A stretch of 64,000 nt of DNA, taken from positions 1,443,103 to 1,507,102 of the forward strand of contig JBBCGY010000001.1 of the NCBI GenBank assembly GCA_037200005.1, in the 5' to 3' direction. Positions 55,793 to 64,000 of the stretch are shown in pieces. Source of the DNA: Alphaproteobacteria bacterium. GTDB taxonomy: Bacteria > Pseudomonadota > Alphaproteobacteria > UBA9219 > RFNS01. How positions within the stretch are numbered: the first letter of the stretch is position 1; each line of letters opens with the position of its first letter. The position numbers were made by a program, and so were the translations under genes. Under the pieces are notes generated by a model. It ran no database searches, was not told the origin of the DNA, and was given only the letters and a program-made list of their open reading frames with translations.

Positions 55793-56470
55793 CTAAAGCA
55801 TATTGCGATAATTCTGCACCGACGCGCTGCCCTTAGGGGCGGATGGCGCGGACGGAGCAGACGGAACGGGCGGCAAACCCTGCGGGGCAGGCGAGGCATC
55901 GGCGCTCATTGGCGCGGGCGCCAGCGAAGGCAATCCTTGGCCGGAAGCAGGGCCGGGAACGGGAGATGTAACGGCATCAGCCGGCGGCGGCTCCACCTTT
56001 CTAGCGTACCCTTCCCCGACAGACAGATATAGCGGTATCTGGCTGCCATCGGCGGCCTGGCCTTGAATAACGAAGCCATCGTAATTGGGATGCTTGACAC
56101 CGATGAAAGTATCCTTCCAGGTCAAGCAATGAACCGGCTCTCTGGAGAGCGAGATATGCGCGCTTTCGTTCGCCACCCCATCCAGAACCGTGATCTTGCG
56201 CAAAAGCGCCGTATGGGAAACAATCGTATATTGCGTGCCCGCTCCCTCGCTTGCCAGATGAACGCCGCTTTTGCCTTTCAGCGTCTCGCATTGGGCGACG
56301 GCATTCGCGAGGTCGTCTTTTGCTCTCTCTTCGGCGCGGCGTTGCTGGATGCCGGTTACGACATCTTCCGCCGCGTTATAAGGAGCGAATCCGCCGTGGA
56401 ACTTAGGAGCGCACATGTCAAGGAACGCCGCTCCCGCGAAGCCCAATACTATATAATCTTTGCTGTTCAT
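55793..56470 (-). CDS. Hypothetical protein A (225 aa): N-terminal hydrophobic segment, globular core, Pro-rich tail
   Basis: MNSKDYIVLGFAGAAFL..., core ending ..SQIPLYLSVGEG, tail ..PGPASGQGLPSLAPAP..PSAPSAPSAPKG. Its stop abuts the ilvE stop. Confidence 0.6.
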   Translation of the reverse strand: MNSKDYIVLGFAGAAFLDMCAPKFHGGFAPYNAAEDVVTGIQQRRAEERAKDDLANAVAQCETLKGKSGVHLASEGAGTQYTIVSHTALLRKITVLDGVANESAHISLSREPVHCLTWKDTFIGVKHPNYDGFVIQGQAADGSQIPLYLSVGEGYARKVEPPPADAVTSPVPGPASGQGLPSLAPAPMSADASPAPQGLPPVPSAPSAPSAPKGSASVQNYRNML

Positions 56471-57084
56471 AGGTTCGACCGAGGATTATCCGACGTTACC
56501 CGCGGCGCGGCGGGACGCGCGGGCGCGGCGCTGCCGGAAGAAGCAGGCGCAGCAGGCAATCCCTGAGATCCCTCAGGCGCATGGGCGGGCAGCGGCTGGT
56601 TAGACATGTCGGCGGCGAGCTTCACGACGTCCGCATTCACATAAAGCGGAATCCTTATATCCCGGCTATACCTCGTGGTGACGCCTTCGACCTTGATGAC
56701 GGGAATGCCGAACAGGTTTGGCTCGCCCACGGGCTCGCCGTAAATGGCGCTGCCCTGCTCGAGATAGGCAACGGCAGGCCTAAGCTTCATGTTCCTGGCG
56801 GTTTCGGTGCCGCTGGGCGCGCGGTGACCTGTGGGAACATCATAAAGAGCGGCTTTTTCGGCCACGACGACATATTCGCGGCCGGTATTGAGCAACGCTA
56901 TTTTCCCGTTATCGCTGCCGTTTGAAGTTGCATAAGAATCCTGCACGACAGCCGCGATGCCCAGCATGCGCTGCGAATCCCCTTCATCCGCCGGGCTTGG
57001 CGTCCCGGCGGCGAGGCGCTGCAAGCCGAGCGCCGCAGCTCCTATCGCGCCCCACGTCAGACCGAATCTTCCCGCGCTGTTCAT
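56467..57084 (-). CDS. Hypothetical protein B (205 aa), weak paralog of protein A
   Basis: MNSAGRFGLTWGAIGAAALGL..., core ending ..DIRIPLYVNAD, tail ..APEGSQGLPAAPASSGSAAPARPAAP. 4-nt overlap with gene A. Confidence 0.6.
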   Translation of the reverse strand: MNSAGRFGLTWGAIGAAALGLQRLAAGTPSPADEGDSQRMLGIAAVVQDSYATSNGSDNGKIALLNTGREYVVVAEKAALYDVPTGHRAPSGTETARNMKLRPAVAYLEQGSAIYGEPVGEPNLFGIPVIKVEGVTTRYSRDIRIPLYVNADVVKLAADMSNQPLPAHAPEGSQGLPAAPASSGSAAPARPAAPRVTSDNPRSNL

Positions 57085-61108: not shown

Positions 61109-64000
61109 CGGCGGCACTCCGCAGAAAACCGGCTGGCATAACGGCGTTTCCATCCTCGCCTATGACGCCGACGGAAAGGTTGTCCGTCTTAAGAAAGGCG
61201 AAACCCCTCCCGCCGCCGCCGTGGCCCTCGCGGAAAAACTTAAGAATCAGCAGAGAGATGAATGGAAGACCAAGGGCGGCAAGCGGCCCAAAATCGATGG
61301 CCTCACGCTGGTTAAAGACGCCAATGCCAACTATACCGGCAAGCCGACGGACACGATCGGCGATGAATATAGTTTAGAAGTCGACGGAAAAAAATACGTC
61401 GCGCGCGTCGAGCGGCACCAGCATGATGACGGCTATAATGGGCGAAACTGGAGCGACGGCTATGGCGAGGACGCCAAGGGCGACGGCACGATAGGCCTGA
61501 CCCCGCCGCCGCTGTTCCCGAATGCCGCCGCCACGGCGAGTGGCGCTACCGTCCTGGCGGGCGCGAAACCCGTAAAATTCGACATAGCGATCGGCGACAG
61601 CATCGCGCTGGGCGTGAAAAATATCGGACGGCTTGGCGGCGACGCCGTTGAAGGACGCTCGCCGCAAGAGGTGCAGTCGGCGATCAATAACATGCTGGCG
61701 ACAAACCCGAACGCGCTGCGCGGCAAGAAAGTCGTTTTGTCCACGGGCGTCAGCAATAGCGCGCTCGCCGATGACAACCTCAATCCCAACAGCGCGCAAT
61801 ACAAGGAAATATTAGGCCAGCAGACTGCCCTGGTCGCCAAGCAGCTCAGAACGCTCAAGGCCGCCGGCGCGGATGTCACCGTCATGGGCGTCTCCGACTC
61901 CAAATATGAAGGCGTCAACGAGATGCTCGCCATGCAGGCTGACACTTCGGGATTCAGCTTCGGAGGCGCGCTTACGCATCTCGGCAAGGACAATGTCCAC
62001 CCCGAATATCATAACGCCCTGGCGCAGCTTCAGACAGCGGCGGGCGGCGGCCAGCCGGGCACGACCGCGGGCGGCGCGCCGGGCACGGCAGAGGATGACG
62101 AGCACGGCGACACTCAGCAGGCCAGCTATATCCAGGCCGCTTCCATTCCGCCTGCGAGCCGGGCGGGCTTGACGCCTCCCGGAAGCAATTTATCCGAAGA
62201 TAACGTCGCGAGTCTGGCGCGGACACAGCAAATCCTCGACCAGCTCGCCGCGGGCGCGGATCCGTCCACCGTCTTCCAAAGCCAGGAAGAAGCCTCGCGA
62301 TTCGGCATCATCAATATGATCATGGAACGGGACGAAGGCGGCAATGTCATTGCCACGCTGGACGACGGCGCCGGTGCCGGCCGTTGGGGACTCACGGCAA
62401 GCAACAACACTAAAATGATTCAAGAATATACCGGCACGCACGACCTCAAGAATCTGACGCGCGCGCAGGTCATGGAAATCACCCGGCGGAATTATTGGGA
62501 CGCCATTGACGGCGACCACATCCAGGGCGATGACCGGGCGAAATGGATGGCGGCTTCCTATATGTACAACACGGGGAGCGCGGCGGCAGCCTTAAGCCTG
62601 GTGAAGCAATCTCATGGCGATAGCTCCAAAATGTATGAAATCCTGGAACATCGCTATGAAGAAAATGCAAAAAAGCCAGGCAAAGAGCAATTCCGTGATG
62701 CCTGGATGAATCGCATTGCCGCCCAAAAGACCGCCACCATCGATGCGGCTTACCGCATATCGAACAGCATCAAGAACGACAGCATAGACACATTGCCTCC
62801 TCAATATCGCGATGACAAAAACGCCGGAAAAGGCGCGGGAGCCGTCGGCGGCTTCACCAGTCAAGAACAGCTCAACACGCTCGCTTATAATATGGCAGAG
62901 CGCAATACGCTGATGGATAAAACGAAGCTGTCTAAGATAGATGACGGTCTTAGCCTGACCGGCCACGACGATCTTGAAGGGCTGAAAAAACAGCGTGACG
63001 AGGAAGCGAAGGCCATAAAAGCCGCTCACGGCAAGTCGATAGCCTATGACAAAGAACTCTTGAGCACGACGACCGAGAGCGTCGTCAAGAGCTGGCTCGA
63101 TTGGAGAAAAGACGCTGGGGACAAAAATCTCGGCGATTCCCAAGCCTATGTCAAAGAGATCAGCACGGCGCTCGACATGAAGCCGACGGAAGCGATCGAC
63201 CTGCATAATCCTGAAACGCTGGCCGTGGTTCTGGGTTCGCTCGGCCGGAACGCGAACGGGCAGCATCTTTCGAGGGACGAAATCCTCGACGCCGTGCAAA
63301 GCGCGACAGGCCGAACAAAAGCAACGCTGATGGAGGATTTCAATACTTTCGCGTCGAAGCACCCCTATCTCGCCACCGCCGGCATCGTCGGCGCCTCCGT
63401 AGCCGCCGTCTTCGGCGGCGAGGCGGTCCTGGGAACGGGACTCCTCGGAGGAACTACCGCCGCAGCGGGAGGAACCGCCGCGGCGGGAGGCGCCACGGCG
63501 GCAGAAGGAGCCGCCGCAACTGGATTATTGCGCACCGGCATTTCCGCGGTCGGACGGGCCATCGGATGGGCGGACAAGGCGGACACGGCCTATAACCTGG
63601 CCGCAGGCGCCGTGGATTATATTTTCGGAAGCAATAGCTCAGGCGGCGGTGGCGGCGGCATTGCCGACGGCCAGGCGGGGCCGTACGACGCGGCCACCTT
63701 GATGGCGATCGGAGCGGAAGAGGCCGAAGAGGACGCGGCCGCCGAAGCGGAGATGCAGGAAAGGCTCAAGCCGAAAGTCTCGGGCGAGGAAGAAGTCTAT
63801 GACGACGATACCGACAAGAACGGTAATCTGATAAGAGGCGGCGGCGTCCTGTCGCGCATAGGCGGCATCATGGAAAAGCCTGGACAATGGTTGGACAACC
63901 ACGAAGCCAGGATCGACAACTGGTTCGAGAAAAATCCTTCCTGGAAGGCGGACTACGTCGCGCCAGCCGCCAGCGCGCCAAGCCAAGGCGCGGGCGGCGG
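61059..64000 (+). CDS. Giant multidomain protein (more than 980 aa, runs off the right edge): SGNH/GDSL-hydrolase-like domain + GH108 muramidase-like domain + helical region + Gly/Ala-rich hydrophobic segment
   Basis: Not in the ORF track (no stop in the window). The frame is open from 61044 (after TAG 61041) to 64000. SGNH blocks: FDIAIGDSIALG, VVLSTGVSN, DNVHP (about 61572-62030). GH108-like: IMERDEGG...WGLT...LTRAQVMEITRRNYWDAIDGD (about 62298-62620). Start uncertain: GTG 61059 is the only early in-frame start codon. Confidence 0.7.
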   Translation, partial: MGAQAPPRPFAPGGSSSGGTPQKTGWHNGVSILAYDADGKVVRLKKGETPPAAAVALAEKLKNQQRDEWKTKGGKRPKIDGLTLVKDANANYTGKPTDTIGDEYSLEVDGKKYVARVERHQHDDGYNGRNWSDGYGEDAKGDGTIGLTPPPLFPNAAATASGATVLAGAKPVKFDIAIGDSIALGVKNIGRLGGDAVEGRSPQEVQSAINNMLATNPNALRGKKVVLSTGVSNSALADDNLNPNSAQYKEILGQQTALVAKQLRTLKAAGADVTVMGVSDSKYEGVNEMLAMQADTSGFSFGGALTHLGKDNVHPEYHNALAQLQTAAGGGQPGTTAGGAPGTAEDDEHGDTQQASYIQAASIPPASRAGLTPPGSNLSEDNVASLARTQQILDQLAAGADPSTVFQSQEEASRFGIINMIMERDEGGNVIATLDDGAGAGRWGLTASNNTKMIQEYTGTHDLKNLTRAQVMEITRRNYWDAIDGDHIQGDDRAKWMAASYMYNTGSAAAALSLVKQSHGDSSKMYEILEHRYEENAKKPGKEQFRDAWMNRIAAQKTATIDAAYRISNSIKNDSIDTLPPQYRDDKNAGKGAGAVGGFTSQEQLNTLAYNMAERNTLMDKTKLSKIDDGLSLTGHDDLEGLKKQRDEEAKAIKAAHGKSIAYDKELLSTTTESVVKSWLDWRKDAGDKNLGDSQAYVKEISTALDMKPTEAIDLHNPETLAVVLGSLGRNANGQHLSRDEILDAVQSATGRTKATLMEDFNTFASKHPYLATAGIVGASVAAVFGGEAVLGTGLLGGTTAAAGGTAAAGGATAAEGAAATGLLRTGISAVGRAIGWADKADTAYNLAAGAVDYIFGSNSSGGGGGGIADGQAGPYDAATLMAIGAEEAEEDAAAEAEMQERLKPKVSGEEEVYDDDTDKNGNLIRGGGVLSRIGGIMEKPGQWLDNHEARIDNWFEKNPSWKADYVAPAASAPSQGAGG

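Follow-up and report, generated by a model that had tools for sequence, protein, structure and literature searches.

The window analysed here, a 64-kb stretch of 64,000 nucleotides, carries next to ilvE a gene for a large membrane protein of the DotA/TraY family (gene C), which is overlapped at its 3' end by a gene for a predicted multi-domain peptidoglycan hydrolase (gene D). On balance we favour the reading that gene C encodes a DotA/TraY-family protein that stands alone (an 'orphan') and has a peptidoglycan-cleaving partner of its own, and that the locus is no type IVB secretion island. The source is an uncultured soil/deadwood alphaproteobacterium, represented by the metagenome-assembled genome (MAG) 40_UBA9219 from a PacBio HiFi co-assembly of a deadwood metagenome (GCA_037975565.1 / JBBCBH), which consists of two contigs of together 2.36 Mb with 90.5% completeness and 59.3% GC and is placed by GTDB in Alphaproteobacteria; o__UBA9219; f__RFNS01; g__JAGOHT01. 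Gene C lies on its contig of 1,828,711 bp. About 74 kb of this MAG was read, namely the window and 10 kb downstream of it. No functional literature on the order UBA9219 was found in the searchable literature. An alignment-based scan of the GTDB species genomes gave 25 homologous loci (a single-protein query gave none), and the gene context of related loci was taken from precomputed gene tables and tblastn. All 25 loci are in alphaproteobacterial MAGs or in records titled Micavibrio aeruginosavorus, Micavibrio sp. or 'Bdellovibrionales bacterium', the last label arising because NCBI files Micavibrio under Bdellovibrionales; L007 and L024/L025 are from the genomes after which the genus JAGOHT01 and the family RFNS01 are named. 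Twelve close homologues of gene C (about 38% identity) form the set to which the hydrolase-domain figures below refer.

Gene C (57509–61108, plus strand) is recorded from its second ATG and encodes 1199 amino acid residues; the ATG at 57503 would give 1201. An earlier reading of the window from the letters themselves (the original prediction) had called this 1201-residue polytopic product DotA/TraY-like, and the family assignment is confirmed by NCBIfam TIGR04346, which gene C matches with 257.6 bits (cut-off 100) over residues 182–941 and profile positions 24–656 of 656. Six other orphan homologues score 232–320 bits against the same model. The score against the DotA equivalog NF033886 is 170.9 bits, below the cut-off of 500 (relatives, 153–193 bits), and Pfam gave no match for gene C. 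Moreover, a profile of C and the 12 homologues finds Legionella DotA (PDB 9ngy) with E = 7.5e-20, the alignment covering the TM1/TM2 block and the C-terminal helices, and a Foldseek search with the AlphaFold2 (AF2) model of residues 1–960 finds 9ngy_FP1, which is DotA in the DotA-IcmX protochannel, with E = 4.8e-12 over 939 columns and a TM-score of 0.35–0.38. This was the sole PDB match below 1e-3, the runner-up having E = 0.12. Legionella DotA is built of a signal peptide, the transmembrane helices TM1 and TM2, an extended domain with disulfides, and five hydrophobic helices (PMC12501162). The hydropathy and the Cys pattern of C agree with this architecture of leader, TM1/TM2, extended domain and hydrophobic helices. 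After a conserved N-terminal tail (residues 1–85) come a leader transmembrane segment ending in an invariant AxA-G (95–132), TM1/TM2 with a TAHEG...WAPxR block (186–250), a variable, hydrophilic, periplasmic 'extended' domain of about 500 residues that holds six of the nine Cys, two of them invariant (271–770), a bundle of hydrophobic helices (771–945), and a Gly/Ala-rich tail of about 250 residues (946–1199). By profile, model and layout, gene C is thus a true, if atypical, DotA/TraY-family protein that keeps the whole DotA layout.

The position of gene C in the chromosome is shared with relatives. In locus L008 the genes follow the same order as in the window, with identities of 83% for uvrD, 71% for the GGDEF gene, 79% for leuA, 84% for queH, 87% for recA and 73% for ilvE, after which comes a DotA-like gene at 36%; the adjacency of ilvE and the DotA-like gene is also found in L003/L004, L005/L006, L012 and L018. 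The older arrangement appears to have been recA-x-ilvE-dotA-like-[variable genes]-peptidase M16-thrC-SURF1-cox. To judge from this gene order, gene C is vertically inherited at a fixed chromosomal place in the UBA9219 lineage and is a core gene, not an accessory one. Its GC content at third codon positions (GC3) is 0.78 versus 0.76–0.84 for its neighbours. The lower GC3 values are confined to gene D (0.67) and to two small genes 5' of C, A (0.63) and B (0.68), and these three are also the ones for which tblastn found no counterparts in 30 related loci. We infer that an old core gene was joined recently by A, B and D, which are specific to the lineage. The original prediction had let the conserved backbone end at the ilvE stop, which is wrong for C; and the possibility, raised there, that related genomes carry the same genes as core synteny came true for C, for which no characterised function was found, and not for A, B and D. 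This corrects the view of the locus as a stand-alone module: the DotA-like gene is old and part of the core genome, and the accessory part is A, B and D only. An orthologue of C in Micavibrio aeruginosavorus ARL-13 was not identified from the product names in the published supplement; that ARL-13 lacks a type IV secretion system, as stated in the literature, therefore lends the orphan reading indirect support at most. In several genomes there are two or three paralogous DotA-like loci (L020, L030 and L031 of one MAG; L024 and L025; L028 and L029), with housekeeping surroundings that differ from locus to locus. A second variable slot in an otherwise conserved stretch lies between recA and ilvE: in the window (54310–54834) it holds a 174-residue protein with CxxC...CxxC motifs and no family match, and in L003 and L005 an unrelated membrane protein of 192/212 residues.

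The conservation of C is very uneven along its length. Identity to the close homologues is 53–63% in the N-terminal membrane block and 52–61% in the helical bundle, versus 21–28% in the extended domain and 18–29% in the tail, and the flanking housekeeping proteins of the syntenic L008 are 71–89% identical to those of the window. Judged from these identities, the extended domain evolves much faster than the surrounding genome. The low identity and the six Cys located there speak for exposure of this domain to the periplasm. Such a fast-evolving exposed domain is what would be expected of a surface that meets a changing partner; relaxed constraint could also be the cause of the divergence.

Besides its position, gene C has a recurrent link to wall hydrolases. 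In 7 of the 12 close homologues the C-terminal tail extends into a wall-hydrolase match (P0002, P0006, P0008, P0009, P0010, P0012 and P0013). The fused domain is GH108 in P0006, P0008 and P0009 (69 bits), Glucosaminidase in P0010 (95 bits) and SLT in P0012 (42 bits); in addition, P0013 has an SLT match below the family cut-off and P0002 a weak CHAP match. Because four hydrolase types occur at the same position, selection seems to favour the activity and not any single domain. The window has its hydrolase in a separate gene, D, in frame +1 relative to C and overlapping it by 50 nt: the reading frame of D opens at 61044 and its GTG start is at 61059, so that the shared stretch (61044–61108, plus strand) includes a G5 run at 61061–61065 and a C5 run at 61074–61078. 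A 1-nt indel, either real or an assembly error, or a +1 frameshift at this overlap would yield one fused protein like those of the homologues. The frame of more than 980 codons that had been seen to overlap C and to run off the end of the window is gene D (61059–64000 and beyond, plus strand), which in full has 1474 residues and stops 1483 nt to the right of the window. These data fit one of the options in the original prediction, a stand-alone envelope-breaching or export module, in that C is an orphan among housekeeping genes and is repeatedly fused to peptidoglycan hydrolase domains.

Gene C is preceded by a divergent, AT-rich intergenic region (57085–57508) that separates it from gene B. 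The 418-bp stretch that had been singled out as an AT-rich control region indeed has a GC content of 0.452 (0.609 for the window), with a core at 57160–57330 of 0.351. In an alignment of the window with six relatives a conserved block, ATTAAAgCAATATTAACtGCAaTTTGtTGCAAT, lies upstream of the DotA-like gene, at about 57281–57316 in the window, and contains TTAA-N7-TTAAC, the consensus CtrA site of Alphaproteobacteria. Of 29 loci, 22 have the motif, with at most one mismatch, ahead of the DotA-like gene. Perfect copies number 12 in the 529 kb of all loci, and nine of them fall within 450 nt upstream of a DotA-like gene, that is, within 2.4% of the sequence; all nine are in gene orientation, and the Micavibrio-titled L019 and L022 are included. 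The copy in the window is TTAAAACAATATTAAG (57285–57300, plus strand). From this motif we infer that C is under CtrA control, i.e. tied to the cell cycle or to a developmental stage. Elsewhere in the window, CtrA-type motifs with at most one mismatch occur only at 49365–49381, between the GGDEF gene and leuA, and at 52973–52988, between queH and recA.

The same observations could be accommodated by a different explanation, in which C serves the lineage as a housekeeping envelope protein, such as a polar or septal scaffold for peptidoglycan remodelling timed by the cell cycle, derived from an ancient DotA/VirB6-like protein and without a role in secretion or between cells. Such a scaffold would suit the fixed core position beside recA and ilvE, the CtrA-type box, the coupling to wall hydrolases and the lack of an ATPase or outer-membrane partner nearby. 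However, a periplasmic domain at 21–28% identity among neighbours at 71–89% would be unusual for it, and the swapping of hydrolase modules among four families, the presence of two to three paralogues in some genomes and the variable orphans next to the gene also argue against it. We regard this explanation as rather unlikely.

The orphan status of C follows from its surroundings. No Dot/Icm, Tra, relaxase or coupling-protein gene was found within 10 kb on either side of the locus in the window or of about ten others on long contigs, in agreement with the original prediction, which had noticed no other dot/icm-like gene in the 7 kb upstream. The neighbours in the further loci are housekeeping genes or unknowns only; in a Micavibrio sp. 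MAG, for example, the DotA-like gene lies between dapA and rpsB. No partner gene is conserved across the loci, where just ilvE, peptidase M16, thrC and one divergent upstream hypothetical family (four loci) recur, and nine neighbouring unknown proteins have no Pfam domain. At the control locus L036, in contrast, a canonical DotA (PF11388) adjoins a gene with an IcmW domain, which is itself flanked by two genes without Pfam match in the icmV/icmX positions. Some loci have unusual neighbours of their own. In L033 (7062–15423; GCA_034286235.1) a 901-residue DotA-like gene lies between co-directional genes for 979 and 893 residues without Pfam domain, which may be partners specific to that clade. 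In L003 (13286–14404) and L005 (13050–14939) the genes just 3' of unfused DotA-like genes encode low-complexity proteins with a common RIALRPDYSW motif and a C-terminal transmembrane helix, which evolve fast (372 vs 629 residues) and have no known domain.

Dot/Icm genes lie in more than one region in Legionella, and C might accordingly be one component of a complete type IVB or mating-pair formation I (MPF-I) system with its other genes dispersed over the rest of the genome. The score of C well above the TIGR04346 cut-off and the share of the 2.36-Mb MAG that was read (about 74 kb) leave room for such a system. It is made highly doubtful by the absence of any Dot/Icm neighbour within 10 kb in every inspected locus, in contrast to the control DotA beside its IcmW-domain gene, by the failure of C against NF033886 (171 bits vs 500) and by plasmid TraY proteins, which match just 22–27% of C.

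The sequence to the right of the locus decides about an island. The order 3' of D, in the 10 kb downstream of the window, is ftsK, a 292-aa gene, a small cytochrome-oxidase-subunit-IV-like gene, purN, purM and DUF2066. Since D is directly followed by ftsK, purN and purM, the locus is four genes wide and not the edge of an island, and the expectation that it extends far to the right, D being all that remained of it 1.5 kb past the window, is not upheld. Extending the contig, as had been proposed, completed D and brought no type IVB secretion system (T4BSS)/MPF-I gene, integrase or relaxase; likewise no integrase, relaxase or further Dot/Icm gene was found within 10 kb on either side of the locus. 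No tRNA lies near it either, the sole tRNA of the window being 20 kb away. An integrated T4BSS/MPF-I island or an integrative and conjugative element (ICE) with its left edge at this locus, which the original prediction had considered and for which the DotA/TraY family protein and the below-backbone GC3 of A, B and D would speak, is thus refuted by ftsK, purN, purM and DUF2066 directly after D and, with C syntenic at native GC3 and neither integrase, relaxase nor tRNA at hand, retains next to no likelihood. A genomic island in general was rejected for the same reasons: the integrase is absent, no tRNA lies within 20 kb, and C has native GC3 and the same position in relatives.

Gene D was searched exhaustively with HMMER using its first 980 residues, the part inside the window. 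This gave 173 relatives at E ≤ 0.001, the best no lower than 1e-17, and all of them on two stretches. The first is an SGNH-type esterase domain (residues 172–345; 61572–62093, plus strand). Over residues ~150–345 it belongs to a family without Pfam or NCBIfam model that has the four blocks GDS / G / GxSN / DxxH; in an alignment of 26 sequences S42 is nearly invariant and G60, N94, D172 and H175 are invariant. Its AF2 model has a predicted local distance difference test (pLDDT) of 82, and Foldseek gave 42 PDB matches with E ≤ 1e-3, among which GDSL esterases, TesA, acetyl-xylan esterases and the peptidoglycan O-acetyltransferase PatB rank at the top. Elsewhere the family occurs alone in proteins of 150–280 residues, and in larger ones right after SLT or phage-tail-lysozyme domains (P0035, P0037, P0041, P0043 and P0049). 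This adjacency points to a wall-related substrate for the SGNH-type domain of D. The second stretch is a GH108 domain (residues 400–585; 62256–62813, plus strand), which matches Pfam PF05838 over residues 425–497 with 34.6 bits (cut-off 21.2) and PHROG 315 (endolysin) with 48.9 bits. Its DEGGN motif aligns to the EGGY motif, including the glutamate, of the TtsA-like PDB entries 7dnp and 6v3z, and a muramidase is predicted. Both activities that had been assigned to D, SGNH esterase-like and GH108 muramidase-like, are hence substantiated at the level of domains.

Further along D are a Gly/Ala-rich, weakly hydrophobic segment (residues 769–793; 63363–63437, plus strand) and a borderline RamC_N-like domain (residues ~1131–1290; 16941–17420 of L001, about 0.4–0.9 kb beyond the window), followed by an Ala/Glu/Leu/Arg-rich C-terminal tail. 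RamC_N (PF25816) scores 22.4–25.1 bits on D (cut-off 27), and the motif GWKTHLSV is present. The sole homologue of the C-terminal part in 5.8 billion proteins, P0184 at 56% identity, is above the cut-off with 29.9 bits. RamC_N is the lyase-type N-terminal domain of class III lanthipeptide synthetases, and it would be unusual for such a domain to terminate a wall-hydrolase protein. Neither an N-terminal signal peptide nor any Cys is present in D. On its predicted domains D is a unique mosaic and not an ordinary endolysin. That D is nevertheless a common prophage endolysin with C as an unrelated neighbour, for which the frequency of GH108 among endolysins and the PHROG 315 match could be cited, is scarcely credible, with no phage genes on either side, GH108 as one of several domains in 1474 residues, the overlap with C, the direct fusion of GH108 to a DotA-like protein in three homologues, and no viral-contig relative of C (none was found in IMG/VR).

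For the orphan DotA-type protein with a wall-cutting partner that we favour, the following course of events can be proposed. C would be produced at a time set by the cell cycle or a developmental programme through CtrA, and, by analogy with the DotA pentamer of Legionella, would assemble in the inner membrane as an oligomeric chamber or channel reaching into the periplasm. The hydrolase would open the peptidoglycan locally, so that the assembly, or its cargo, could cross a cell wall. Lacking a signal peptide, D is probably brought to the wall through or together with C. The wall that is cut may be that of the own cell, in the assembly of an envelope-spanning structure, or that of another cell, either prey or neighbour.

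Several points weigh against this proposal. The oligomerisation of C is argued by analogy, and its channel activity and its use by D are conjectural. Legionella DotA requires IcmX, DotG and ATPases to form and open its conduit (PMC12501162), none of which was seen in the inspected sequence here, and a lone DotA-type protein may work quite differently from it. The search for Dot/Icm genes in this genome covers about 74 kb of a 2.36-Mb MAG, and the AF2 model of residues 1–960 is of low confidence (pLDDT 59.9). No recognisable hydrolase was detected in 5 of the 12 close homologues, nor in the scanned far-clade proteins and their neighbours, and the split between C and D could be an assembly indel in the G5 or the C5 run. 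Moreover, control by CtrA is deduced from a motif, of which the copy in the window has one mismatch, ending in G instead of C.

If the orphan reading is extended to contacts between cells, a role in predation is plausible, a link suggested by two things, the occurrence of family members in records titled Micavibrio and the small size of the genome. C may then form the heart of a minimal conduit that has no ATPase gene in its vicinity and that small-genome alphaproteobacteria of the UBA9219/Micavibrio type use on contact with other cells, for example in an epibiotic attachment or feeding junction. CtrA would direct its production in the attack or swarmer stage, target specificity would be set by the hypervariable extended domain, and proteins without signal peptide such as D would be passed through to cut the wall of the target with the SGNH and GH108 domains and to deliver the C-terminal lyase-like module. 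In this full form we hold the idea to be quite unlikely. Nothing relevant was found in the searchable literature on Micavibrio with DotA or on orphan DotA/TraY proteins, nor was a description found there of a DotA/TraY-family protein outside a type IV secretion system.

The remaining parts of the locus are specific to this lineage. Gene A (55793–56470, minus strand, 225 residues), whose stop codon abuts that of ilvE, and gene B (56467–57084, minus strand, 205 residues) overlap by 4 nt (ATGA), as had been described, and both encode orphan proteins with an N-terminal hydrophobic stretch, short in A, and a Pro-rich C-terminal tail. A promoter-like site for B is at 57144–57115 on the minus strand. 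The two had also been regarded as weak paralogs. Their overlap and common architecture are real, and a weak colinear alignment includes IPLY and QGLP motifs, but the similarity is marginal (BLASTP E = 3; shuffle test z = 4.9 for the full proteins) and is lost for the cores without the Pro-rich tails (z = 0.8). Neither gene has a match in Pfam, NCBIfam or PADLOC, and the single PHROGs match, for A, is not significant (E 0.044); no match to the PADLOC defence families was obtained. A and B occupy the divergent upstream slot that is held elsewhere by unrelated hypothetical proteins. A divergent hypothetical family without Pfam match lies on the minus strand just upstream of the DotA-like gene in L007 (8442–9707), L009 (850–2112), L010 (1–945) and L034 (7085–9025). 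In the presumed 5' leader of gene C (57333–57439, plus strand) the 21-nt long-range inverted repeat that had been noticed is present, with 90% complementarity between its arms at 57333–57353 and 57419–57439; chance would give 0.01 matches, and the window has no second copy. The folded form is a 108-nt hairpin with a minimum free energy of -48.7 kcal/mol (z = -5.27); the leaders of L003, L005 and L008 are unstructured (z ~0). The hairpin looks like a lineage-specific insertion in the leader and, being neither conserved nor matched in Rfam, is not taken as part of a conserved mechanism.

To our knowledge DotA has so far been met only within a machine of more than 25 proteins, and it was reportedly shown in 2025 to be the central, gate-keeping channel of the Dot/Icm machine of Legionella. 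A lone DotA-type protein that has been kept for a long time in the core genome, with its own conserved promoter box, interchangeable wall-cutting domains and a fast-evolving exposed domain, would show, if the reading holds, that the channel module is usable outside type IV secretion, and would offer a much simpler system for the study of a DotA-type channel. The junction between epibiotic predators and their prey is molecularly unknown (PMC12428579), and since the family is present in Micavibrio-titled records, C becomes a concrete candidate for that junction. Whatever the mechanism, a new SGNH-type domain family tied to wall-lytic domains has been defined, and a likely member of the CtrA regulon has been flagged in an uncharacterised order.

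Among known systems, the closest to C is the DotA/TraY class (DotA of Legionella and Coxiella, TraY of IncI plasmids), the VirB6-like channel subunit of type IVB systems, with which it shares the family by HMM, the order of parts and the fold match to DotA 9ngy; as in DotA, TM2 and the hydrophobic helices are separated by a periplasmic extended domain rich in Cys. It differs from DotA by the conserved N-terminal tail of 85 residues, which the Legionella alignment leaves uncovered, by the Gly-rich C-terminal tail of 250 residues (or, in relatives, the fused hydrolase), and by being a core chromosomal gene that does not pass NF033886 and carries a CtrA-type box. Type IVB loci such as the control L036 have their partners adjoining DotA, in contrast to C and the inspected relatives, and the partial matches of plasmid TraY are at 31–34% identity. 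With the promoters of the CtrA regulon the box upstream of C has in common the same motif of nine specified bases, the gene orientation, the location within 450 nt upstream and the conservation in distant members. As regards D, the TtsA-type GH108 muramidases that serve in toxin export by type 10 secretion (6v3z, 6v40) share the EGG glutamate, and its best PDB sequence matches include Sen1395 and the 'secretion activator protein' 7dnp; the resemblance is slight, however (E ~0.01), neither a holin nor a toxin gene is present, and the partner is a DotA-like protein. The SGNH/GDSL hydrolases that act on O-acetyl groups of peptidoglycan (PatB/Ape) share the four blocks and the fold with D, and PatB of Campylobacter and Neisseria are among the top structural matches, whereas the domain of D forms a sequence family of its own and its substrate is a prediction. 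VirB1-type lytic transglycosylases are the specialised wall-cutting enzymes of type IV secretion systems. Here too there is a genetic tie between a peptidoglycan hydrolase and a channel component, presumably for local opening of the wall, and SLT is among the fused domains. Unlike in the VirB1 case, the hydrolase, whether GH108, glucosaminidase, SLT or CHAP, is fused to or overlaps the VirB6-like subunit itself, and in this genome it sits in a multi-domain protein of 1474 residues without signal peptide.

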